From Nitrososphaerota archaeon (GTDB lineage: Archaea; Thermoproteota; Nitrososphaeria_A; Caldarchaeales; Calditenuaceae): a stretch of 32,000 bases of DNA. Location of the stretch: NCBI GenBank assembly GCA_038741355.1, contig JAVYLC010000005.1:1-32000 (forward strand), given 5' to 3'. Below the pieces are notes generated by a model, which was given only the letters and a program-made list of their open reading frames with translations, was not told where the DNA came from and made no database searches. A program made the position numbers and the translations under genes. The stretch's first letter is position 1; the number at the start of each line of letters is the position of its first letter. Below, piece by piece: positions 3,633-29,801 of this stretch.

Positions 3633-6600
3633 TTACGCCAGCCTGTAGGCACCTGGCTTGGGGGTATAAATCCTACCCTCCGTGATCATCCTGTTGAGTA
3701 TACGGTCAATCTCGGCCTTCGTAAGCCCCTGCTCCTGTAGCTCCTTCTTCAAGGCCTCGTCATCAGCGTAGCCGTGCTGCTCCTGCAGCTCCCTAATCAC
3801 GTCAAGGACTAGACTCAGCTTCTCGCGCACACTCCGGGGCTTCCCAGTCATGATGACGTCTATGTCTGGCCTCCCAGTCTCAACGTCTATCCCAACCTCG
3901 GAGAGACTCCTCTTCATCAGCCTAACAGCAACCTGCGCATCATCCACAGTGACCACGTTCCGCAGGCAGGCTCTAGCCCTAGCCTCCGCCAGCCTTATCA
4001 GAGACTCGAGCTGCCGGGCCGTAATAGAGACGGTGGAGGTCTTCTCGTATACGGCCCTCATGTTTAGGTAGAACTGCTGGAGGACCCCGGCGGCCTCCTG
4101 TGTCAGCATTGGCTCGATCTTCTTGGAGTATGCGATGTATTTCTTCAGTATGTCTGGCGGGATGGGTGGCTCCTTCTTAACACCGCCCTCAACGTGTAGG
4201 GAGACTATGTGGCTTGAGACCCTCTTATCCGCCTCGGGGCTCGGCTCATCTCTTAGGACGAAGATTAGGTCAAACCTTGAGAGGAGGGTTATTGGGAGGT
4301 TGACGTTCTCGTTGAAGGGTCTATAGACGTCGTATCTGCCTAGCTCGGGGTTTGCAGCCGCGAGTATGCTGCATCGCGCGTTTAGCGTCGCGACTATTCC
4401 ACCCTTCGCTATGCTAACAGTGTTATGAAGCAGAAGACCATGCGAGATGAAGCTATGAGTTGGCTCCACGGTAACATCGTAAACCCATTCGGTTCTGTAT
4501 GGGCCCGCATTCCTTATTTTCTCGACCTTCTTAACTCTAAGCCATCTTAGATCTGAGTCAACAATGTTTCTCAGGAGTTGCAATTCACCCTCTACCTGCC
4601 GAAGAACCTCATTAGACTTGGTCACCGCCTCCATTAACAGTCTTTTTCTCATTTCTTCATCATAGCCGCCCCTCTCCGCGTAATCCACGACACTCCTAGA
4701 CACGGACAGGTGCCTGGCCAGTTCTTGTTGCGACCATCCTAATGCAGATCTGACCCCCCTCAGTGTGTCTGCCTGAGTAATAACGATCTTAGACCTGTAA
4801 AGCTTCTCTTCCATTAAGTCTAAGCATCGTCTTACCACAGACCTAGAAATCCCGTGTCGTCTCCTCAGGTTGTTATAAAACTCTCCACGATAGCGGATTC
4901 CTAAAAGCTTCATCAGCCTGATGATATGCTTTGCTACTTCTGGAGGGAGAATATCATGGTGCCTTCTAGTATTGCTCTTTTGAAGGAGTTGTGCAGCTTT
5001 TTGTTGTTTGCTATCAAAGAGTAAGATTTCGTCCTTAAATAAACTAAGAGAATGCGATAGTATTCTAAGCCTGTAATACTTGTTTCCAGAAGAGTGAATG
5101 GATGAGTGAATACCTAGCTTTAGTAGTAGATCTTGGCAATCCTCTGCAAAGAGTCTCGAGGCCGTCTTCAAGGTGGCCGAGCTGCTTACCTCCCCGTCAC
5201 CGGCAAAAACACCCCTCAAGAACTCTCTCACAATATCCTTTGAAGCCGACATGATTTTGGAGGGGGCCCTCTTATGGGTTGCATCTGCAACCAGTTCGGG
5301 GAAGTTTTTCTCGAACCATCTAAACAATCTAGTGGAGATTAGCTTTAAGGTCACGACGCCATACCTTCTGTCTGTATGCACGTTTGGAATAATGCAGAAA
5401 AGCTTCTCGGCGAGCCTCCTGAAATCAGAGAGTAGGCGGCTATCCTTATTTGAGAAACATATCTCAAATGAAGATCCTTTGTGGAAATGCCCCTCTGCGG
5501 CAATATAGCCGAGTAGCCTTGCAAGCTCAGGAGTTAACTGTAAAGGAAGTCTCACTTTTTTCTCCCTAGGTCGGGATGCAACCTCTCGGAGAAGGACCTG
5601 TGACGACGAATTGGGTAAAATCCTTGGCGCAGGCACATAATCCCCAGGCTTGACATGATCAGCCCTGATTGTCGATAGCAGGTGGCGCTCTGAGCTGACG
5701 AAGACAGGGTGTTCAGGTGTAACTATGATTTCTCTTCCATTGTTGTAGGTGATTTTTATGAAGTGGGCAGGTGCTTTATGCCTGCTTACCCGAGCCGGTC
5801 TGCAAACACTAACTCGGAGAGTAGCCGGATCCAATGTGTAAACTTGGATATTGGGAGGCTTCAGCAGAACTTCACTCTTATCGACAACACACACGTCAGC
5901 CGCATTGCTATTCAAGAGCGAATCGACAAGCTCGCCTATCCTCATTTTGCCCTTATCATAGGTCAGCAGCTCGAACGAAGGGTGATAGGACTGTTGCGCC
6001 ATCACTTCGTGCATCGCCACCCTGTCCTCAGGCCTCATCTTATCTATCTCATCAATCACGCACACTCCCATATCCGCGAGTACGCTCGCCCCCGCCTCCA
6101 GCACTAGCCCTCCTCCCGCATCCCTAACAACTGCCGCAGTTAATCCAGCAGCAGTACTGCCCCTCCCAGAGGTGTACACTCCCCGCGGAGCAATCTGCGC
6201 CGCGTAGAGTAGGAGGGTTGACTTGGCGGTCCCAGGGTCTCCCACTAAAAGAACATGCACATCGCCCCTTACCCTTACGCCGTCCGGGAAGACCTTACTC
6301 CTCCCTCCGAATAGCAGTAGTAGGACCGCCTCCTTGATGTGTTCCAGCCCCTCGATAGAGGGCGCGACAGACTCTATCAGCCTCTGATAATTCTGCGGGT
6401 CTGCAGCCATATCCTTAAACATCTTCTCCTCCTCAGGCGTGATAAGGAGGGACTCCAGCTCCTTACCACGAGGCTCGATCGAGACGGCGTCGAGGAAGAC
6501 TTTCCGGGGCTGAGCCGCATGCTCACCTTGCTCAGCCGATAGCATGAGTATACCCGTTACAGTGACCCTGTCTCCCGGCGCTGCTACGTCTACGAAGTCT

Positions 6601-7202
6601 CCCTTAACCCTCACATCAATTATCCGTGGCAGCTGTCCAGGCGGGAGGTCCTCCGGCTTCTCTTGGACACCGAGCGTCTGGAAATCGGCGAAGACCGACT
6701 CCTCCTCAACCAGCTCGAAGGCCGGCCTCTTCTCGAGGCATCTAGGGTTCCTGCATCGGGGTGGTGGCTTAGGGCCTTCACCTGTGTAGAGGTTTCCACA
6801 GTATCTACATCTGAAGGCTGCCCTCTCTAGCAAGGGCCTGACCGCTGAGGCCCTCACAACTATCCCATCCACAGCTATGAGCTTTCTTAGATGCTCGGAG
6901 CGAATCTTCCTGATCGGGATTGACTCGGGGAGGCCTCTGACCGCTGTCTTAAAAGACTTCACCAGAGAGGCGTATTCCGGATACTCAAGCTCGAGCTGCT
7001 TGTATGCAGCGTTGTCGAGTAGTGGTAGGTAGACAAGAGGCTCGGCCTGAACCTTCTCTGCGAACTCCCTGTTAAAGATCAGGAGGTCGCTGAAATCCAC
7101 GGGGAATGTCTTACGGCCAGATACAACAGCCCTCGAGATCATGTCCCGGTACTTTTCCTGCTTAAAGAACCGAGCCAGCTCCTCCTCGATTGTCTCAGCC
7201 AT
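3633..7202 (-). CDS. mcm: MCM replicative helicase interrupted by one intein (extein about 666 aa)
   Basis: N-terminal Zn motif CRYCG...CRNPRC, Walker A LLVGDPGTAKS and Walker B CVIDEIDKM. The conserved MHEVMAQQ / TVSIAKGGI block is split by a 523-aa insert. C-terminal winged-helix tail present. Confidence 0.9.
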   Translation of the reverse strand: MAETIEEELARFFKQEKYRDMISRAVVSGRKTFPVDFSDLLIFNREFAEKVQAEPLVYLPLLDNAAYKQLELEYPEYASLVKSFKTAVRGLPESIPIRKIRSEHLRKLIAVDGIVVRASAVRPLLERAAFRCRYCGNLYTGEGPKPPPRCRNPRCLEKRPAFELVEEESVFADFQTLGVQEKPEDLPPGQLPRIIDVRVKGDFVDVAAPGDRVTVTGILMLSAEQGEHAAQPRKVFLDAVSIEPRGKELESLLITPEEEKMFKDMAADPQNYQRLIESVAPSIEGLEHIKEAVLLLLFGGRSKVFPDGVRVRGDVHVLLVGDPGTAKSTLLLYAAQIAPRGVYTSGRGSTAAGLTAAVVRDAGGGLVLEAGASVLADMGVCVIDEIDKMRPEDRVAMHEVMAQQSYHPSFELLTYDKGKMRIGELVDSLLNSNAADVCVVDKSEVLLKPPNIQVYTLDPATLRVSVCRPARVSRHKAPAHFIKITYNNGREIIVTPEHPVFVSSERHLLSTIRADHVKPGDYVPAPRILPNSSSQVLLREVASRPREKKVRLPLQLTPELARLLGYIAAEGHFHKGSSFEICFSNKDSRLLSDFRRLAEKLFCIIPNVHTDRRYGVVTLKLISTRLFRWFEKNFPELVADATHKRAPSKIMSASKDIVREFLRGVFAGDGEVSSSATLKTASRLFAEDCQDLLLKLGIHSSIHSSGNKYYRLRILSHSLSLFKDEILLFDSKQQKAAQLLQKSNTRRHHDILPPEVAKHIIRLMKLLGIRYRGEFYNNLRRRHGISRSVVRRCLDLMEEKLYRSKIVITQADTLRGVRSALGWSQQELARHLSVSRSVVDYAERGGYDEEMRKRLLMEAVTKSNEVLRQVEGELQLLRNIVDSDLRWLRVKKVEKIRNAGPYRTEWVYDVTVEPTHSFISHGLLLHNTVSIAKGGIVATLNARCSILAAANPELGRYDVYRPFNENVNLPITLLSRFDLIFVLRDEPSPEADKRVSSHIVSLHVEGGVKKEPPIPPDILKKYIAYSKKIEPMLTQEAAGVLQQFYLNMRAVYEKTSTVSITARQLESLIRLAEARARACLRNVVTVDDAQVAVRLMKRSLSEVGIDVETGRPDIDVIMTGKPRSVREKLSLVLDVIRELQEQHGYADDEALKKELQEQGLTKAEIDRILNRMITEGRIYTPKPGAYRLA
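4422..5990 (-). mobile_element. Intein (aa 405-927 of the MCM ORF) with LAGLIDADG homing-endonuclease domain and an XRE-like HTH
   Basis: Junctions are AQQ|S...LLLHN|TVSIAKGG (Ser1, C-terminal His-Asn, Thr+1). The AAC (Asn) codon was verified at 4422-4424. Block B is VTPEHPV. LAGLIDADG motifs are LLGYIAAEGHF and FLRGVFAGDGEV. The HTH is LGWSQQELARHLSVSRSVVDYAERG (about 4668-4742). The DNA is visibly more A/T-rich than the flanking extein. Confidence 0.8.
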
Positions 7203-14765: not shown

Positions 14766-15196
14766 CCTTACACAGTAAGACCCTTTTAGCTCCCCAGGAT
14801 ATGCCCCAGGGGGTTCCTAAATGTATTATCGGAGGCTCTATTTAAAGGCTCGTTAATGCAAGAAGGAGTTCTAGGATTCTAATCCAACGTCATGAAAGGG
14901 GAAAAATAAGGGGAGAGGTTGGTTAGAGGTCAACCGGCAGAACAGCACTGAGGAGCCTCAGCGAAAGGCCGGTATAGATAAAGTGTGGGGCAGTAGGGAG
15001 ATCTCTCTACTTCCTGAAAAAGATGCGGACACCTGCCTTCCGAGGTATTCCCCGCTGTTCAGGCCGGTACTCTCCGGCCTCTCCCGCGGTCCTCCTCTCA
15101 CCGTCATCCATATCATTCTCAGAATTCTCTCCTCGTCTCTGGCTCTGTGTTTTGGGTTGTTCAGGACCACTAAAGTCAGGCGAGACAGCACACTCC

Positions 15197-15856
15197 TCAC
15201 CGCTCCATTGTAGAGTTTCGGCCTACCCCTGAAGAGTCCGAAGAATCTTCTAAACCGCTTATATGATTGCTCCTGTTAATGTGGAGCAGTATTTCTGCCA
15301 AGGCCTCCCTGGCAAATAGAAGTTTCTCTCCAGAGATTCCTAGAGCCTCAACCAATCTGTTGTGGAACGGTAAACGTCTCTCCGCCTCATAGACTATCTT
15401 TGTAGCTACCCTCTTCATGGACTCCTCAATAGTCCTAACAGAGATCATTAAGCCCTCTCTATCATCTTCCTTCAGGGCCTTAGCCCTTTTTAGAAGACTG
15501 GTGCGCGTCTTAAAAAGACTTCTGAAGACTGCGCATAGCCTTCTGATTACTAGGAAGTCTTCATCGACTTCTATGAACCACATTGAATCCAAAGACATCA
15601 TTGCTTTGAGGTCGTTGCGGCTATTCTTCGGCAGCTTTAACTCCACCCTCCTCTTCGCAACAATTGTTATCCTTCTCAGATTGAAGATCCTCACACCCCT
15701 CCTCAGGAGTTCGACAAATTCATCGGTCAGCTCTATTGGTATTGTGTCTACGTAGAGTTCATATCCTGCCTCTGCCGGAATTTCTACAATACTTTTTGCC
15801 TTGCTGAAAGTTTCTCCGTCCATAGTGTAGATGTGGTAGTTCTCTTCAGTCTCCAT
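15197..15856 (-). pseudogene. IS110-family-like (DEDD/RuvC-type) transposase remnant, probably frameshifted near 15270
   Basis: Weak resemblance to IS110 transposases: IYTMDGE, YVDTIP, LLRRGVRIFNL, KNSRNDLKAMMSL (KTDxxDA-like) and LVEALGISGEKLLFAREALAEIL (siPGiG...llaEi-like). The expected GL.P...G..lR..L continuation (FFGLFRGRPKLYNGAVRSVLSRL) appears in another frame from about 15275 downward. A/T-rich compared with its surroundings. Confidence 0.35.
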
Positions 15857-16221
15857 CCTCCTTTCCTTATTTGCTAGTCTGTGGACATCTACGAAGAATC
15901 TTTTACACTCTCTCTGGATTTATATTATAGATCCTTTTCCGGGATTCTTCATCTGTTCATCCCCTCTACCAGGAACCCGAAAACAAACCCTAGCTTCTGT
16001 AAGTCTACCATGACTAGCGATTGGTGAGGCCTAGTTGTATTTAGGACTTGAGACCACTCAGTGAAAGTGACACCTCATATTTCTAGCTTTCTCATGACTT
16101 TCTAGAAGGGGTGCAAGATTTTAAGTGAGGAATTGTAGATAGTGGCATAAAGATACCGTAGAGACCGCAAATAATGGGGGAGAGGAGACTGATGAAGGCC
16201 CGTTGGTGAGGCTCAGTAGAG

Positions 16222-16485
16222 TTGAGGGGGGTGATAGCCGAGTGCATAGGGTTTCTTGAGGTGGTTAGGGATAGGTGCGCTAATAACCCTACCGTCTACA
16301 CGGATAGGGCTCCATGGTACGGATGGCCCATGAAGGTTCTGGGCTTGAGGAGGAGGGTGGAGACGTTCGGCAGTAGGAAAGCTATAGAGTCTTGGTTCAG
16401 CGGGCTGAAGAGGAGGATAAAACAGTTCAACACATGCTCCCCAACATACAGGCCGAAGATATCGGAGAGGTGGATAAAGGCATAG
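16222..16485 (+). pseudogene. IS6-family DDE transposase, C-terminal fragment
   Basis: VYTDRAPWYG and RKAIESWFSGLKRRIKQF match the IS26-type motifs INTDKAPAYG and RNNVIECDHGKLKRII. There is no N-terminal part upstream (stop at 16207-16209). The ORF ends 5 nt before an IS6-type terminal repeat. Confidence 0.65.
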
Positions 16486-16490
16486 ATGGC

Positions 16491-16507
16491 CTTAAGTTGA
16501 CAGTCCC
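16491..16507. repeat. IS6-type terminal inverted repeat copy (CTTAAGTTGACAGTCCC)
   Basis: 14/17 identical to the right end of the MITE at 24066-24082. The first 13 nt are identical to the copy at 31412. The outer end reads GG... as in IS6-family ends. Confidence 0.5.
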
Positions 16508-16598
16508 TCGAAGCCTCCAATGCCTTTATCTCGCCGGTGTTTCTGTCGAAGATCCACAGACTTTTTTTTCTCCAAGCATAACTACTTCTCCGCGGCAA
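16506..16598 (-). pseudogene. IS6-family transposase fragment (region around the first catalytic Asp), opposite orientation
   Basis: YAWRKKSLWIFDRNTGEIKALEASR resembles IS26 GRWAYLYRAVDSRGRTVDFYLSSRR. The homology stops exactly at the outer end of the terminal repeat at 16491-16507. Confidence 0.45.
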
Positions 16599-16863
16599 GC
16601 GTCATGGACCTAGGCTGGTCGCCGATGAGATGCCTGTAGAAAACCCTGTCAACATGTCTCATCAGAAGCCCGTTCCTAGCAGCTATCACGGCGCCGCCAG
16701 CCCCGTCGGAGACCGCGGCTGTGTAGTCTGCCTGAGGAGCCGTCAGCACGCCTATATTGCTGGGAAGCCGGAGGGGCCTGCGGCTACCACCCCGTCACCG
16801 CATATAAATGAGGATGGGGGGTTTTACCCATTTAAAGTGTCTCGATTCCGCGATCTATCACTA

Positions 16864-17652
16864 CTACTGCCCCGAGACCCGCGGTTTTAATGCAGCCTTC
16901 CAGAGGTGTATGATGGCATAGGGCCTCGAAACCCCCTCGTCTTGCATTATCTTCTCGATCGCAGATGCTACCCGGGCCTCGTCCCTGTATTTGGCCACTA
17001 ACTCCTTGTATAATGGCTCGGCCTCCTCAGTGCTTGTGGTCAGCTTTGCGATTGTGCGCGGTAGAGACCTGATATTATCTATTTTCACTTGGAGGTCAGA
17101 TATTTGCTTCTTTATCTCCGCGATCTTGTTTCGATATTCCTCAACCTCTGCCTCCAGTGTTTTGAGCCGCTCGTTTTCAGCATCGTTCAGCGAGCCTTCA
17201 TGCGTCCGTAGGTATTCGACTTCTACGAGCCTGTCGAAAAGCTGTTCTTCCAACTCGCTCATCCTCGTCTCCAGCAAACCAAGAGCCTCGTTAAGCAGGT
17301 TCTCGCAGGTCTGCGCCTCGCTCAGCAGCGCGTTCCTCTCATCTGATAGCTGGTTCAGCTTCTTCTTCACGGAGCGGAGGTCAACCTCATCCCACTTCTT
17401 GAAAACTCTCTGGATTGAGCGGTCCATCTCCCGGATTTCCCTTAACTTTGCTTGGATGGCGTCAAAGCTCTTGAGCGCCTCCTCATAGTTGTCTATTGGT
17501 TGCTGGGCCGTTGGCTGGGCCTGTATTTCCTGAGGCTCTGGACCCTGTCTTTCTACCTCATGAGCCCCTGTCAATTCGCCTACCTGCTGCTCTGATTGGG
17601 TAGTCTCTGGTATTAGCCGCCTCTTGATCACTATCCGCTTCTTATCACTCAT
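16864..17652 (-). CDS. Coiled-coil protein of unknown function, translationally coupled to the JAMM protease gene
   Basis: The ATG at 17650-17652 overlaps the JAMM stop in the string ATGAGTGA, which is preferred over the upstream start at 17664 in the ORF track. The N-terminus is Q/E/P-rich. A long heptad-like helical region follows (LREIREMDRSIQRV...LEAEVEEYRNKIAEIKKQISDLQVKIDNI), then a small C-terminal globular part. There is only one Cys, so it is not a RING. Confidence 0.6.
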   Translation of the reverse strand: MSDKKRIVIKRRLIPETTQSEQQVGELTGAHEVERQGPEPQEIQAQPTAQQPIDNYEEALKSFDAIQAKLREIREMDRSIQRVFKKWDEVDLRSVKKKLNQLSDERNALLSEAQTCENLLNEALGLLETRMSELEEQLFDRLVEVEYLRTHEGSLNDAENERLKTLEAEVEEYRNKIAEIKKQISDLQVKIDNIRSLPRTIAKLTTSTEEAEPLYKELVAKYRDEARVASAIEKIMQDEGVSRPYAIIHLWKAALKPRVSGQ

Positions 17653-18256
17653 GCCTCTTAACACCCTCTGCCCCTAGGCCATGCAATAGAAAGTTACTGA
17701 TAACCTTGAAGGGTTTTGGGACGGGCATGTTATGTTCTTCATATTGGAAGATAGATGTTGTTGTGAGGCTGATGATCGTGGATTCGAGCATCTTACGGGT
17801 TCCGGCCCCAAAGGTCACTGGCAGCTCAATTACTTGGTTATTGGGCCCCACTCTAAAGACCTTGAATAGCCCGTCTGATACCTTCTTGGAGCCGCCGTAC
17901 TTTGAGGGATCTATAACTAGGGCGATGGCGTTCTGGTATAGTGCCTGATAGGTTAGCTGGGTTCGGATATCTATAGGGGACAGGAATAGACCTAGAGATG
18001 GATGGGAGTGGTACCATCCAACGATAAAGAGGGGGATTTTATGGTCGTGAAGGAATTCTGCTACCCTTGCCATCACCTCTTCATTAAGGACGACGAACCC
18101 TGGGGAGCCGGTCTGGCTGCCGGTAACAGCATCCCACACCTCAACAACCCCATTCTCCTCGGTCCCAAGCAGTAGACCCGCCACCTCAATCTTGGGGTTA
18201 GAGAGGGAGTGGTTGATGACTTTTGCTAGCGCCGGCGGGAGCAGCCTAACCCTCAT
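17645..18256 (-). CDS. JAMM/MPN+ metalloprotease (Rpn11/CSN5-like deubiquitinase candidate)
   Basis: Upstream Glu in KIEVAGLLLG and a complete JAMM motif, GWYHSHPSLGLFLSPID (H-x-H-x7-S-x2-D). 203 aa. Confidence 0.85.
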   Translation of the reverse strand: MRVRLLPPALAKVINHSLSNPKIEVAGLLLGTEENGVVEVWDAVTGSQTGSPGFVVLNEEVMARVAEFLHDHKIPLFIVGWYHSHPSLGLFLSPIDIRTQLTYQALYQNAIALVIDPSKYGGSKKVSDGLFKVFRVGPNNQVIELPVTFGAGTRKMLESTIISLTTTSIFQYEEHNMPVPKPFKVISNFLLHGLGAEGVKRHE

Positions 18257-18283
18257 TTTGCCCCAGTATCATGTAACTACCTG

Positions 18284-18293
18284 CCTATAAACC
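18284..18293 (-). promoter_or_regulatory. TATA-like box for the JAMM/coiled-coil operon
   Basis: The minus strand reads GGTTTATAGG about 32 nt upstream of the ATG at 18256. This spacing implies a leaderless or near-leaderless transcript. Confidence 0.4.
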
Positions 18294-18505
18294 CCTTACC
18301 TACATACCGCCCCGCTACGGGGGGATCAAAGATCTCTCACAACACTTGTAGTGCCTTCTCCCTTTACGAGTGTGGTAGACTTTGCCCGCCCCAAATTGTC
18401 CCATCATACTTTAAAAATCACCCAGGCGCAGTCCGAGGCCGTACCATATTATCGGGAGCGCGTATTTGTTACGTATGTGTGCACGCGATTCTCAGTACAG
18501 TTAAT

Positions 18506-18515
18506 CTATTTATAG
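18506..18515 (+). promoter_or_regulatory. TATA-like box for the Ub-E2-E1 operon
   Basis: CTATTTATAG lies about 40 nt upstream of the Ub ATG at 18552. Confidence 0.4.
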
Positions 18516-18551
18516 CCCATCCAATAAACTGGATTAGGCGATGCGGGAAAT

Positions 18552-18788
18552 ATGAAGATTAGAATAGTCCCTGCGGTTGGTGGTGGCCCGCCAATCGAAC
18601 TAGATGTCCCGCCCAATGCAAGTATAGGTGCCGTGAAGATGCGGGTTTGCGCCATAAAGAAGTTGAGGCCGGAGGATGCGAGGCTCACGTTTAAGGGAAG
18701 GGCGCTGAGCGACTCTGAGACAATCTCTTCAGCAGGAGTGACTGAGGGAGATAAACTGGTCTTGATTACTAGGACAGTTGGTGGGTAG
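18552..18788 (+). CDS. Ubiquitin-like beta-grasp modifier ending in Gly-Gly
   Basis: 78 aa. The C-terminus LVLITRTVGG is followed directly by TAG (checked: ggt ggg tag at 18780-18788). TFKGRAL resembles ubiquitin IFAGKQL, and LVLITR..GG resembles LHLVLRLRGG. Confidence 0.85.
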   Translation: MKIRIVPAVGGGPPIELDVPPNASIGAVKMRVCAIKKLRPEDARLTFKGRALSDSETISSAGVTEGDKLVLITRTVGG

Positions 18789-18790
18789 CT

Positions 18791-19294
18791 TTGGAGGCGT
18801 CGGAGGTTGGGTATCTGCCTGAGAGCAGATGGGTCAGGCGTCTGGCCCAAGAATACCAGCTCATCAGGAACTATGAGCCCAACTTCGACGCTGTAGGCGG
18901 CGACCTGACACACTATAAAGGAATAATTATCGGTTCTGGAGCCTATGATGGTGGGGTATTTGTTGTGGAGATTATCCTCCCACGCTCATTCCCATTTGTT
19001 CCCCCCGAGGTGGTCTGGCACACCCGGATATGGCATCCAAACTTCACGGATGAGGAGCCTGCTAGAATCTGTGAATCAATCCTGAACAAGGATTGGTACC
19101 CCAACATGCATATCGTCTCGGTTATTGAGGCTCTGAAGAACCTTCTCGCCAACCCTAACCCGGATGACCCGCTCAACGTCTGGGCAGCCCAAGAGTTGAA
19201 ATTATATCCAGAGAGATTTATCGCCCGGGTTAGGGAGTATATCAGGCTCTACGCAACGCAGGAGCGGTCCCTAGAGAAGCTCGCCGGGATATGA
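18791..19294 (+). CDS. UBC-fold ubiquitin-conjugating enzyme (E2)-like protein
   Basis: Canonical UBC layout: RRLAQEYQLI, GGVFVVEIILPRSFPFVPPEVVWHTRIWHPNF (HPN motif), catalytic-Cys context RICESILNKDWYP, and LLANPNPDDPLN. The only available start is TTG at 18791, 2 nt after the Ub stop. Confidence 0.85.
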   Translation: MEASEVGYLPESRWVRRLAQEYQLIRNYEPNFDAVGGDLTHYKGIIIGSGAYDGGVFVVEIILPRSFPFVPPEVVWHTRIWHPNFTDEEPARICESILNKDWYPNMHIVSVIEALKNLLANPNPDDPLNVWAAQELKLYPERFIARVREYIRLYATQERSLEKLAGI

Positions 19295-20457
19295 CTGGTA
19301 TGGAGAGGTACGACCGTCAACTCCGCATAGAGGGTTGGGACCAGAACATTCTACTATACTCGACCGTATTTATTGCTGGCGTCGGAGCAATAGGTGGTGA
19401 GGTGGCGAAGAACCTCGCGATGATGGGCGTAGGCAAGTTGATACTCGCAGACTATGACTATGTTGAGCTAAGCAACCTGAGTCGACAACTCCTATTCCGG
19501 GACTCAGACATAGGTAAAGGGAAGGCGAGAGTTGCAGCTGAGAGGCTACGCGAGATTAACCCCCACGTAGCAGTCGAGGCCTACGGTCAAGATATCCGGG
19601 AGCTAGGAGAGGAGGTGCTAGGCAATGTGGACATAATCTTCTCATGCCTGGATAACTGGGCGTCCAGGAGGTGGTTGAACTCAGTTGCTGTCAGCCTTGA
19701 CAAACCCTTAGTCGACGGCGCCATGAACGGATTTTATGGAAATGTTCAGGTGGTTTTTCCACGAAAAACTGCGTGCCTAGAGTGCCAGAGCATTAACCTC
19801 ATACCTAGAGAGGAGAAGCTGGCAGAGTGCACACTTAAGAGGAGGAAGCCTGAACACCTCGTCAACGATCTGAAGGAGCATGGAATCATAATTTGTCTTG
19901 AGGAGGCTGAGAAGCTCTTCCAACTCAATATAAAGACGATCTACGATATAAAATACACGAAGCTAGACATGGTAGCGGAGTTGGCTGATGACCAGACACT
20001 AAAGCTGATAGAAGAACTAAGGTCGCGGCTAATGCCACCTATGCCTGCTATCCAGTCTGTAGCCTCAGTAATTGCAGGAATCATGACAACTATCGGCATA
20101 CAAATACTCCATCAAGGGCGTCTCGGAAAGCCGCTGACAGGCCTCATCGTTTATGACGCCCTCAACTCTCGCCTATCCCGTATCAAGATCTCCCGAGACC
20201 CGCACTGCATAGTATGCAATGAAAACTATTCTATGCCCCTCGAGCTTTCCTTCGACTTGAGTGAGACAGTCCTGAAGCTTAAAGAAACATTGGCCTCGGT
20301 CTTCGGATTCCCAGACCCCGAAGTGTTATATGCTGGGAAGAGACTGGACGATGAGGATGTCCTTGCCAAGGTTGGTGTGAGGGACAGGGATGTAATCTAC
20401 ATCTCTACGACGCGGCTTTTTGAGCCCCTAGCAATCAGGATAGTCTCCTCAGCCTAA
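19291..20457 (+). CDS. E1-like (ThiF/MoeB/Uba-type) adenylating enzyme with C-terminal beta-grasp-like domain
   Basis: RYDRQLRIEGW, nucleotide loop GVGAIGGEVAKNL, LSNLSRQLLF, and two CxxC pairs (CLEC at aa 162-165, CIVC at aa 306-309). There is an insert of about 85 aa between them, with Cys180 and Cys202. The ATG overlaps the E2 stop (ATGA at 19291-19294). Confidence 0.85.
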   Translation: MTGMERYDRQLRIEGWDQNILLYSTVFIAGVGAIGGEVAKNLAMMGVGKLILADYDYVELSNLSRQLLFRDSDIGKGKARVAAERLREINPHVAVEAYGQDIRELGEEVLGNVDIIFSCLDNWASRRWLNSVAVSLDKPLVDGAMNGFYGNVQVVFPRKTACLECQSINLIPREEKLAECTLKRRKPEHLVNDLKEHGIIICLEEAEKLFQLNIKTIYDIKYTKLDMVAELADDQTLKLIEELRSRLMPPMPAIQSVASVIAGIMTTIGIQILHQGRLGKPLTGLIVYDALNSRLSRIKISRDPHCIVCNENYSMPLELSFDLSETVLKLKETLASVFGFPDPEVLYAGKRLDDEDVLAKVGVRDRDVIYISTTRLFEPLAIRIVSSA

Positions 20458-27058: not shown

Positions 27059-27649
27059 CTACCACTCGCCCTTGTTTGCGTAGGGGATGCTCCATAACGC
27101 CACCGACAGCGTCACAGCCTTAAACCAAGCGCTTTGCATCTTCTCAACCTCCTCCGGCGAATGACCTTTCTTAGCAAGGAAAGGCTTGATGGTCGCTGTT
27201 ATGGGGACGATGAACGCAATCATGTATCTCAGTGGAATATGTTCGACTGAGTCAACTTTGTCCGTCTTATTCTTCTTCGACCTGTGATGACGTTGACCTA
27301 TCTCATACTGGTAGTCAAGCCACTCGCGGTCATACACTCTAAAACACGTGTCAAGAATCCACTGGCCAAACCGTCTCCTCACAGCCTCCAGATACTCTGA
27401 TATGGGCTGCCCCGTCCTCCTGTCCCCGAAGTAGTAGACAAGATGCTTGTGTGAGCCAACCCATCCATACCAAAGGTCCAGAACGTCGTCAACCTGGTCC
27501 TTCAAAACCTCGCCAGCCAAACGCAGGTACTTGATGTCCTCGTCAGTCATCAAAACCGTCGTCTTCAACAGCTCGAACTCCTCGTCGCTGACAGGGGCTC
27601 TCGCCAACTCCCTCGAACCGTATGTGTATCCTGGGATCTGCACGCTCAT
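27059..27649 (-). CDS. Protoglobin (archaeal globin-coupled-sensor-type heme globin domain)
   Basis: MSVQIPGYTYG..., DLWYGWVGSHKHLVYYF, WLDYQYEIGQRHHRSKKNKTD (proximal-His region), ITATIKPFLAKKGHSPEEVEKM and AWFKAVTLSVALW. Near-colinear with Methanosarcina/Aeropyrum protoglobins as recalled. The ATG at 27647-27649 is preferred over the longer ORF. Confidence 0.85.
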   Translation of the reverse strand: MSVQIPGYTYGSRELARAPVSDEEFELLKTTVLMTDEDIKYLRLAGEVLKDQVDDVLDLWYGWVGSHKHLVYYFGDRRTGQPISEYLEAVRRRFGQWILDTCFRVYDREWLDYQYEIGQRHHRSKKNKTDKVDSVEHIPLRYMIAFIVPITATIKPFLAKKGHSPEEVEKMQSAWFKAVTLSVALWSIPYANKGEW

Positions 27650-27770
27650 GCGTTTACACCATCGTCCTGCATATTTGAGAGTTAGCTGACAAAACGGTAA
27701 GGCTGTTACCGGAAAGTAACCGCACAAGCTTTTCTAAACGTTTATATCTTTTGTAAGAAGTCACAACTCA

Positions 27771-28325
27771 GTGACTGTCCCTCAGCAGCGCAGCATGCTT
27801 ACGCCGCCCGTTTTCAGATGCAAGCATACAATACCCATTCTTTCAGCGATGAGAGGTAGCGCGCTCAGGTTCTCCGAGCTTGAGCGTAGGCTCGGCGTCA
27901 AGCCATCTGTTTTGGTCAGGAAGCTTTGGCTGCTGCAGCGTGAGGGGCTGGTCAGGGCTGATGGGGGGAAGTACATGCTGACCGAGACAGGGGAGCAGAT
28001 AACCCGGCTTCTGACACCGATTGTCTCTGAGGTTTCTCTGCAGGCGTTGGCGGAGGTTCTGAAATGCAAATGGTCTAAGGAGATTTTGACAAGCCTGTTG
28101 AAAGGCCCCCGATACAGCGTAGAGCTGGTCAACAGCTTGGACGGATTAAGCTGGAAAGTCGCTTCTGAAAGGTTGAGAAAGCTTCAGAAACACGGGCTTG
28201 TTGCAAAAACAGTTCAAGCGGAGACCACGCCCGTCAGAGTTGTTTACAGCCTTACGAGGAAGGGAAAGCTGCTGGCCTGGTGGCTTCTGAGCGCGGGCCT
28301 CATCGTCCAGCCGCAGACTACATAA
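27771..28325 (+). CDS. Transcriptional regulator with two winged-helix domains (C-terminal HxlR-type)
   Basis: The N-terminal wHTH is FSELERRLGVKPSVLVRKLWLLQREGLVR. The C-terminal HxlR-like domain is CKWSKEILTSLLKGPRYSVELV...ASERLRKLQKHGLVAKTV...PVRVVYSLTRKGKLL. GTG start. Divergent from the protoglobin gene. Confidence 0.65.
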   Translation: MTVPQQRSMLTPPVFRCKHTIPILSAMRGSALRFSELERRLGVKPSVLVRKLWLLQREGLVRADGGKYMLTETGEQITRLLTPIVSEVSLQALAEVLKCKWSKEILTSLLKGPRYSVELVNSLDGLSWKVASERLRKLQKHGLVAKTVQAETTPVRVVYSLTRKGKLLAWWLLSAGLIVQPQTT

Positions 28326-29405: not shown

Positions 29406-29801
29406 GTGGTTGAGAGGAGTCGGGACTGGATGGACCAAGCGGAAGGGGACCTTGAGCATGCGAAATCCGACCTAGAACGTGGTTTTTATGACTGGGCGTG
29501 TTTCTCAGCCCAGCAGTCAGCTGAAAAAGCGGTGAAAGCCGTTTTCCAGAAGCTAGGCGCCGAGGCGTGGGGCCATTCCGTTTACGACTTGCTTATAAGC
29601 CTCAGAGAAAAAACCACGGTAGACGAAGAGCTTCTAACATATTCGCTGGAGCTGGATAAAGCCTACATTCCAACCCGATACCCAAACGCACACCCATCCC
29701 TCTCCCCACGCAGAAGATACACAAAAGTAGAGGCTGAGCGAATGATACACTATGCGGAGAGAATCCTCGGGTTCTGTAAAAATTTATTATCCAAAGTATA
29801 G
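29406..29801 (+). CDS. HEPN-domain protein (HEPN-MNT toxin-antitoxin type)
   Basis: WMDQAEGDLEHAKSDLERGFYDWACFSAQQSAEKAVKAV and the R-x4-6-H motif region IPTRYPNAHP. GTG start (alternative ATG at 29430). Confidence 0.75.
   Translation: MVERSRDWMDQAEGDLEHAKSDLERGFYDWACFSAQQSAEKAVKAVFQKLGAEAWGHSVYDLLISLREKTTVDEELLTYSLELDKAYIPTRYPNAHPSLSPRRRYTKVEAERMIHYAERILGFCKNLLSKV

Follow-up and report, generated by a model that had tools for sequence, protein, structure and literature searches.

A cluster in which the gene rpn11l lies divergent to ubl, e2l, e1l and srfp was described in 2011 in the archaeon Caldiarchaeum subterraneum (Nunoura 2011, PMC3082918), as operon CSUB_C1473-C1477. The corresponding cascade of ubiquitin (Ub), activating enzyme (E1), conjugating enzyme (E2) and RING ligase (E3) was rebuilt in 2017, Rpn11 stripping a 9-aa pro-peptide from Ub (Hennell James 2017, PMC5654768, 'Cluster I'), and the structures of its Ub (CsUb) and Rpn11 (CsRpn11) were solved in 2018 (Fuchs 2018, PMC6043591). 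E1 and E2 of Caldiarchaeum also auto-ubiquitylate in vitro without any E3 (PMC5654768). Here we analysed a ubiquitin locus of the same order, Caldarchaeales, found in a stretch of 32,000 nucleotides from a hot-spring Nitrososphaerota archaeon closely related to Caldiarchaeum (positions 1 to 32,000 of contig JAVYLC010000005.1, assembly GCA_038741355.1), which is called the window below. The locus comprises genes for Ub, E2 and E1 on the plus strand and, divergent from them, genes for an Rpn11-like JAMM protease and for a predicted coiled-coil protein, CC (Table 1). We read it as a functional, vertically inherited ubiquitylation module of the Caldiarchaeum type which has lost its E3 block, and in which the last step most likely proceeds without a canonical srfp-type RING; the probability that we attach to this reading as a whole is about 0.85.

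Layout of the locus

All five open reading frames (ORFs) proposed in an earlier note, made from the letters of the window, were found in the ORF list, and the junctions described there were found as well. E2 opens with a TTG 2 nt past the Ub stop (the junction reads GGT GGG TAG ct TTG), the ATG of E1 overlaps the TGA of E2 by 4 nt, and the two divergent units are 295 bp apart. The overlap between the JAMM and the coiled-coil genes is also real, but its extent is 8 nt instead of the 20 nt of the original ORF call, since the start of CC is most likely ATG 17652: the protein read from there begins MSDKKRIVIKRR, and in the alignments all homologues begin at this place. With a 2-nt gap and overlaps of 4 and 8 nt, the genes of the locus are tightly coupled.

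The divergent intergenic region has two TATA-like boxes (TTTATA), read by eye, one on each strand. The first precedes the JAMM ATG by about 32 nt and the second the Ub ATG by about 40 nt, and on the archaeal TATA consensus both are putative promoters. The promoter-proximal ends of this region align with relatives, and its centre (18305-18423) does not. On the other side, a convergent gene for a pyridoxal-phosphate enzyme (PALP) comes 20 bp after the E1 stop. Scans of the window for tRNA genes and Rfam families returned nothing.

The order Ub-E2-E1, the overlapping or abutting ORFs and the divergent Rpn11-like JAMM are those of the Caldiarchaeum operon (PMC3082918, PMC5654768), and a CC homologue follows the JAMM gene in loci of the genus Caldarchaeum too. 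Unlike the Caldiarchaeum operon, the window lacks the srfp RING, a second RING protein and the p105 and p275 coiled-coil genes, and its Ub comes without the 9-aa pro-peptide, so that the JAMM protein would not be needed for Ub maturation. The locus is the orthologue of the Caldiarchaeum system and not a new kind of system. The earlier note had presented an E2-containing cascade as something rare among archaea, a framing which has to be given up, since the orthologous system belongs to the same order, was described in 2011 and was reconstituted in 2017-2018.

Identity of the conjugation enzymes and of the protease

Profile, sequence and fold evidence agree on a eukaryote-type Ub-E2-E1 cascade accompanied by a JAMM deubiquitinase, as had been proposed, the ubiquitin, UQ_con, ThiF and JAB families of Pfam all being assigned with strong E-values. 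Ub (Pfam ubiquitin, 4.7e-12) matched only the ubiquitin and Rad60-SLD models of Pfam, not ThiS/MoaD, and in the PDB its best match was CsUb (6fj7/2mqj/6fnn, 1.5e-32), human ubiquitin following at about 1e-5. E2 covered positions 1-139 of the 140 of the UQ_con profile (3.7e-27) and is 62% identical to a protein from a C. subterraneum metagenome-assembled genome (P0015). Its HPN motif (82-84) and Cys94 are invariant among 19 homologues, and in the PDB match to UBE2D1 (1.1e-22) Cys94 was aligned to C85 of UbcH5. An AlphaFold2 model of E2 (predicted local distance difference test, pLDDT, of 88) was superposed by Foldseek on UbcH5/Ubc4 with E about 1e-12, a template-modelling (TM) score of 0.76-0.80 and a root mean square deviation of about 2 A. 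The model thus has the UBC fold, and the 167-aa protein is indeed a UBC-fold E2.

E1 matched Pfam ThiF at 4.8e-61. It carries a nucleotide loop (G30xGxxG35), two zinc-binding Cys pairs (C162xxC165 and C306xxC309) and a predicted catalytic Cys180 in the motif LAECTLK, which was aligned to the catalytic Cys of human UBA1 (PICTLK); in the C-to-A mutant chain 6dc6, Ala stands at this place. A feature absent from the earlier note is a ubiquitin-like (Ubl) domain at the E1 C-terminus (Pfam ubiquitin, 4e-7 at aa 318-371, the fold extending over about 318-388). It is a ubiquitin-fold domain (UFD) of the type found in eukaryotic E1s and in the Caldiarchaeum E1 (PMC5654768 supplement). The JAMM protein (Pfam JAB, 3.3e-16) has the residues E24, H83-S-H85, S93 and D96 of its family, and its best PDB match was CsRpn11 (6fju, 1.6e-50), the next being human PSMD14/Rpn11 (2e-17).

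These matches bear on whether the locus could be a sulfur-carrier or SAMP system of the prokaryotic type, in which a MoaD/ThiS-like modifier is served by MoeB, ThiF or UbaA. SAMP/UbaA and Urm1-like systems likewise combine a JAMM protease and an E1-type adenylating enzyme with a beta-grasp modifier that carries GG, and the core of E1 does match the models concerned, yet all scores lie far under the curated NCBIfam cut-offs: 141 bits against 275 for TIGR02356 (2.8e-41), 138 against 266 for MoeB (2.8e-40) and 107 against 450 for UbaA (8.8e-31). The nearest PDB match of E1 is human UBA1 (1e-39), before MoeB (8e-28) and ThiF (3e-27), with the Cys aligned and the Ubl domain at the C-terminus, whereas SAMP/UbaA and Urm1-like systems have an E1 without UFD and no E2. 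In the window a genuine UBC-fold E2 lies between E1 and a modifier, Ub, whose matches are Pfam ubiquitin and CsUb. Ub and E1 thus do not group with MoaD/ThiS and MoeB/ThiF, and we regard a sulfur-carrier system as effectively refuted.

The likeness to the eukaryotic cascade of UBA1, UbcH5-class E2 and Rpn11 extends to the Ub fold with its GG, to the catalytic Cys and UFD of E1, both aligning with UBA1, to the UBC fold, HPN and Cys of E2, which superpose on UbcH5 (TM about 0.8), and to a JAMM protein close to Rpn11/PSMD14. The eukaryotic E1, by contrast, is a pseudo-dimer of about 1,000 aa with inactive and active adenylation domains (IAD/AAD), whereas the E1 of the window has a single adenylation domain in 388 aa. 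Its genes moreover form an operon, the JAMM protein appears without an Rpn8 partner or a lid context, and no E3 is visible.

Absence of the RING block in a whole clade

Searching the species representatives of GTDB with an E2 alignment produced 80 loci (numbered L below), which were annotated with phmmer and profile hidden Markov models (HMMs). In the architecture common among Caldarchaeales, CC and JAMM on the minus strand are followed by Ub, E2, E1, srfp-RING and p105 on the plus strand and then by p275 on the minus strand. Often the next gene codes for a second RING protein of about 240 aa, with the RING at its C-terminus, which corresponds to the 'second E3' of PMC6043591. The p105 product of RING-bearing loci is a coiled coil of about 105 aa and that of the convergent p275 a coiled coil of about 277 aa (e.g. 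L064:9883-11022, L066:11238-12026); published descriptions of the Caldiarchaeum locus label the coiled-coil genes after srfp only 'hypothetical proteins'. The second RING protein matches zf-RING_2 at 1.7e-8.

The whole block after E1 is missing in the window and in 20 other loci, which are HR02-like (L005-L017) or Calditenuis-like (L018-L024 and L061). No RING was found in the 32-kb window, where the best match of a profile HMM trained on 45 srfp sequences to the six-frame translation had E = 0.63, nor within 8 kb on either side of the locus in any of the 21 loci of this HR02/Calditenuis clade. A classical RING regular expression had also found no match in the six-frame translation of the window; it was dropped for the profile HMM because a genuine Caldiarchaeum srfp escaped it. 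The lack of a RING in or next to the cluster, which had been put forward as distinctive, is thus true for the window, but it is a trait of the whole clade. As to the modifier encoded in mature form, GG is indeed followed directly by the stop, but such a Ub is common and not distinctive, being present in 36 of 69 loci (15 of them with an adjacent RING), while the other 33 have extensions of 4-20 aa.

In a neighbour-joining tree of E2 and E1 the RING-less loci group together as one clade, the sister of which comprises all RING-bearing Caldarchaeales, and in L075, an Asgard outgroup locus, RING-like ORFs come after E1. Given this monophyly and the outgroup, the parsimonious assumption would be that the RING block was lost once. 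We found no description of RING-less Caldarchaeales clusters in the literature; the JGI OTU-1 genome of the clade figures in the supplement of PMC5654768. All relatives of the E2 belong to Caldarchaeales (Aigarchaeota), and one protein, 99% identical, was found on contigs of 1.26-1.55 Mb. Since the nearest genomes, HR02 (BEHE01), JBEPYO01 and GCA_009889515.1, are just 84-88% identical in nucleotides (approximate values), the window would represent a distinct member of the HR02-like group.

Other departures from the common layout were met in the survey. In the Calditenuis clade (L018-L024, L061), Ub-E2-E1 stand alone among housekeeping genes for phosphorylase, PrpD and the exosome RNase PH subunits, with neither JAMM nor CC within 8 kb, so that the deubiquitinase is unlinked or missing. 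Loci of the Geocrenenecus type (L038, L043, L044, L049) show JAMM on the minus strand and Ub-E2 on the plus strand, and no E1 ORF after E2 even where several kb follow; their E1 may be unlinked or absent. Finally, E2 and E1 abut or overlap in most loci, but in Terraquivivens they are spaced by about 2.0 kb in L048 (8489-10501) and about 0.85 kb in L054 (8489-9346). The E2 ORFs of these two loci look N-terminally truncated (146 and 123 aa), and an insertion between E2 and E1 is possible.

The RING-contact surface of the E2

Loop 7 of the E2 reads W102-Y103-P104-N105 in the window, as against W-S-P-S/A in Caldiarchaeum. The same division was seen across the survey: the loop is W-[YFHE]-P-N in the RING-less loci wherever the motif was readable (it was not detected in L022), and W-[SRKT]-P-[SATGP] in every one of the RING-bearing loci. 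In twelve columns of an E2 alignment that included UBE2D2, and that agrees with the UBE2D alignments of the PDB search, the two clades have no residue in common. Of the twelve, four lie within UbcH5 positions 90-96, namely at 90, 91, 94 and 96, where the window has N99, K100, Y103 and N105. A naive hypergeometric test, which ignores phylogeny, gave p = 3.6e-4.

In UbcH5c, positions 94-96 form the RING-contacting 'SPA' loop, and the mutation A96D abolishes RING binding (PMC2254412). In the Caldiarchaeum E2, a change of Ser to Gln at the equivalent position left the cascade markedly impaired (PMC5654768). The correlation of the loop 7 sequence with RING loss would fit an E3 binding that has been relaxed or altered. 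Within the clade the new residues are conserved in their turn, which suggests a surface that has changed rather than decayed.

A helical protein coupled to the JAMM gene

The CC gene adjoins JAMM in 36 loci, in the HR02-like, Caldarchaeum and Terraquivivens groups, whereas the Wolframiiraptor group has none. Being conserved across two families, it belongs to the regular parts of the locus and is not peculiar to the window. Ten close homologues were found, and since just 14 clusters reached E <= 1e-10 when 1.84 billion representative proteins were searched exhaustively by profile, CC constitutes a small, lineage-restricted family. Its AlphaFold model (pLDDT 79) starts with a disordered N-terminus (1-54) headed by a conserved basic motif, continues with three long helices at 55-89, 96-154 and 161-199, and ends in a highly conserved, small C-terminal helical domain (201-259). 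Paralogy of CC with p275 or p105 was considered and found unsupported (hhalign probability of 35% at most). Translational coupling and conserved synteny suggest that CC would be a physical partner or a regulator of the JAMM deubiquitinase.

Selection and genomic context

Ratios of nonsynonymous to synonymous substitution (dN/dS) were computed against the HR02-like locus L006, at dS of about 0.44-0.75. They were 0 for Ub, 0.021 for E2, 0.068 for E1, 0.038 for JAMM and 0.053 for CC, compared with 0.036 for the neighbouring housekeeping gene aCPSF1; the Ub proteins of the two loci are 100% identical at 89% nucleotide identity. Strong purifying selection thus acts on each of the five genes. Their layout is kept in at least 9 related species, at nucleotide identities down to about 75%, and in the subclade of the window it is flanked by conserved housekeeping genes, p450 and aCPSF1 on one side and PALP, DUF211, VIT, DinB, GHMP and ArgG on the other.

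That the remaining genes might be a decaying relic, non-functional passengers left behind after E3 loss, could be thought from the loss of the RING/p105/p275 block and from the IS-type insertion that adjoins the locus. The selection data contradict it (dN/dS of 0-0.07 against L006), no ORF is broken and no catalytic residue is missing, and the layout is shared by the species just mentioned; we give decay hardly any weight.

Context also speaks to a possible role in defence. BilABCD and Type II CBASS Cap2 systems have the same four-part, E3-less list of Ubl, E2, E1 and JAB protease, the E2 of Bil having been proposed to give specificity (PMC10557695), a precedent for specificity without an E3, and the locus could by analogy be an antiviral island conjugating its Ubl to viral proteins, with CC as a lineage-specific accessory protein and a mobile-element scar next to it. 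PADLOC, however, gave no matches for Ub and E2, and for E1 only generic matches to the adenylation domain (Cap2 E1-E2 8e-24, BilD 2.7e-9). Bil loci have the order Ubl-E2-DUB-E1 (DUB, deubiquitinase) and a BilD without UFD (PMC10557695), and Bil and CBASS systems belong to defence islands. The window locus differs in order and in its UFD and, unlike defence islands, stands in housekeeping synteny (aCPSF1 ... PALP, DinB, ArgG) in all species of the clade, with a phylogeny consistent with that clade; the flanking insertion is missing from all relatives. An antiviral island is in our opinion improbable.

Proposed mechanism and the last transfer step

By homology with the Caldiarchaeum system, the 78-aa Ub would be synthesised with its Gly-Gly end already exposed. 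E1 would adenylate Gly78 of Ub and then hold Ub as a thioester on Cys180, its C-terminal ubiquitin-fold domain would recruit E2, and Ub would pass to Cys94 of E2 and from there onto lysines of the targets. The divergent Rpn11-like JAMM would take Ub off again and, as there is no pro-peptide to remove, would act solely as a deconjugase. The most likely role of CC, which is translationally coupled to JAMM, is to bind the protease or regulate it, or to serve it as adaptor or substrate. In the HR02/Calditenuis lineage the block of srfp-RING, p105 and p275, often with the larger RING, would have been lost from the locus, and with loop 7 changed in addition, the final transfer most likely proceeds without a canonical srfp-type RING, being either E3-independent or dependent on a different partner.

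Several points weigh against this reading. The mechanism is transferred by homology, the ATP-dependent thioester relay, isopeptide conjugation and JAMM-dependent deconjugation having been demonstrated for the Caldiarchaeum orthologues only (PMC5654768, PMC6043591), and with these, modification of the test substrate Rad50 strictly needed the srfp RING (PMC5654768), so that a cascade without E3 may be inefficient. The correlation between loop 7 and RING loss is no statistical proof, because the RING-less loci are one clade and effectively one event. A protein search with the srfp profile returned 26 proteins, none of them on the clade's contigs of 1.55, 1.26, 0.86, 0.81, 0.73 and 0.10 Mb, but this search was word-indexed, was aimed at srfp-like RINGs and not at larger RING or U-box proteins, and would miss a diverged E3. 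As to CC, Foldseek found no fold match in the PDB beyond generic helical bundles (best E 0.013, TM 0.42 at most), and Pfam, NCBIfam, PADLOC and PHROGs yielded sub-threshold coiled-coil noise (Rad50, SMC, JetC, scaffold proteins).

The serious rival is that the cascade is canonical and still depends on an E3, linkage alone having been lost: a RING or another E3 encoded elsewhere would still work with E2. The srfp requirement of Caldiarchaeum in vitro fits with it, and E2 keeps in loop 4 the Pro-Phe/Tyr motif for E3 binding (FPFVPP). The RING scan proper covered just the 32-kb window, and components can be dispersed in these genomes, as the JAMM unlinked from Ub-E2-E1 in the Calditenuis sister clade indicates. 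Against it stand the empty result of the srfp-profile search on the large contigs of the clade, and the replacement and fixation of the RING-contact residues of loop 7 (S to Y and S/A to N in 19/19 E2s, the 103-equivalent position being [YFHE] across loci). Moreover, the entire four-gene E3 block is gone, and not srfp alone. We judge an unlinked E3 possible, though rather unlikely. Within the reading that we prefer, a module which has lost its E3 block, a tentative and more specific idea is that the cascade is E3-independent and that, after both RING proteins were lost, E2 evolved a new, selectively maintained loop 7 surface (W-Y-P-N) which binds substrates directly, or docks CC as a non-RING adaptor linking conjugation to deconjugation by JAMM; this, too, we would not bet on.

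Flanking insertion and other features of the window

A patch next to the locus had been called a decayed insertion sequence (IS) and counted among its distinctive traits. It proved to be a discrete insertion with a perfect 8-bp direct repeat, ATTTAAAG, at both junctions, but it does not characterise the locus, being absent in all relatives (L005-L017). These have the empty site: in BLAST alignments they run to 14847 and resume at 16830, with an overlap of 8 bases. A target-site duplication of 8 bp is typical of IS6 elements, and the insertion contains an 87-aa fragment matching positions 113-192 of the 202-position IS6 model. At 1,982 bp it is longer than a typical IS6. Within it there were no convincing terminal inverted repeats, no intact DDE transposase and no other transposase or recognisable fragment of one. 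It stands between CC, whose stop codon is 35 bp away, and aCPSF1, whose start it precedes by 82 bp, and its GC content is low (0.466 at 15001-16000). The insertion is strain-specific and incidental to the ubiquitin system.

Table 1. Coordinates of features in the window (position 1 is its first letter)
Feature	Position	Strand	Description	Basis
Ub	18552-18788	+	78 aa, ending ...LITRTVGG, TAG directly after	ORF list
E2	18791-19294	+	167 aa, TTG start	ORF list
E1	19291-20457	+	388 aa, ATG start	ORF list
JAMM/MPN+ metalloprotease, Rpn11-like	17645-18256	-	203 aa	ORF list
CC (coiled-coil gene)	16864-17652	-	262 aa from ATG 17652; upstream GTG 17664 would yield 266 aa	
Divergent JAMM-Ub intergenic region	18257-18551		295 bp	
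TTTATA, putative JAMM promoter	18286-18291	-	TATA-like	Read by eye
TTTATA, putative Ub promoter	18509-18514	+	TATA-like	Read by eye
Insertion	14848-16829		1,982 bp	BLAST breakpoints against L006/L008/L009
8-bp direct repeat	14840-14847 and 16830-16837		Perfect, at both insertion junctions	
IS6-transposase C-terminal fragment	16222-16485	+	2.2e-8	NCBIfam transpos_IS6
219-aa ORF in the insertion	15197-15856	-	No match in Pfam, NCBIfam, PADLOC, PHROGs	

Elsewhere in the window, an MCM helicase gene (3633-7202, minus strand) reaches 1189 aa through an intein that sits in the P-loop domain and includes a LAGLIDADG homing endonuclease (Intein_splicing at aa 418-927, LAGLIDADG_3), and the GC content drops to 0.47-0.50 over 4001-6000; the MCM proteins of L005 and L006 are intein-free and 666 aa long. 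To the right, a protoglobin gene lies beside a gene for a double winged-helix (HxlR/PadR-like) regulator (27059-27727, minus strand, and 27771-28325, plus strand), and a stand-alone HEPN-domain protein is encoded at 29406-29801 on the plus strand. In the stretch that matches the protoglobin region, L005 and L006 carry DUF4013 and zinc-ribbon genes; because of this difference in gene content, synteny breaks down past 26841, about 6.4 kb beyond the right end of the ubiquitin locus.

Implications

As a model for the origin of the eukaryotic E1-E2-E3 cascade, the archaeal ubiquitin operon comes first, and biochemical work on it has so far been confined to the RING-containing version of Caldiarchaeum. 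Our survey adds three uncharacterised coiled-coil or helical genes (CC, p105, p275) and a second RING protein as conserved parts of the locus. The interest of the variant found in the window is modest, and lies in the clade-wide absence of the E3 block, the remodelled RING-binding loop of E2 and the conserved, uncharacterised partner of JAMM. If a RING E3 sits elsewhere in the genome, the finding shrinks to an ordinary orthologue with rearranged linkage. As it stands, the sister clade to the RING-bearing Caldarchaeales keeps Ub, E2 and E1 under strong purifying selection, with JAMM and CC as well in its HR02-like branch, and so offers a natural experiment on the need for E3 in minimal systems and on the basis of target choice. 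If the cascade of this clade is truly E3-independent, the archaeal side of the eukaryotic lineage would have in it a naturally occurring, minimal Ub-E1-E2-DUB system.

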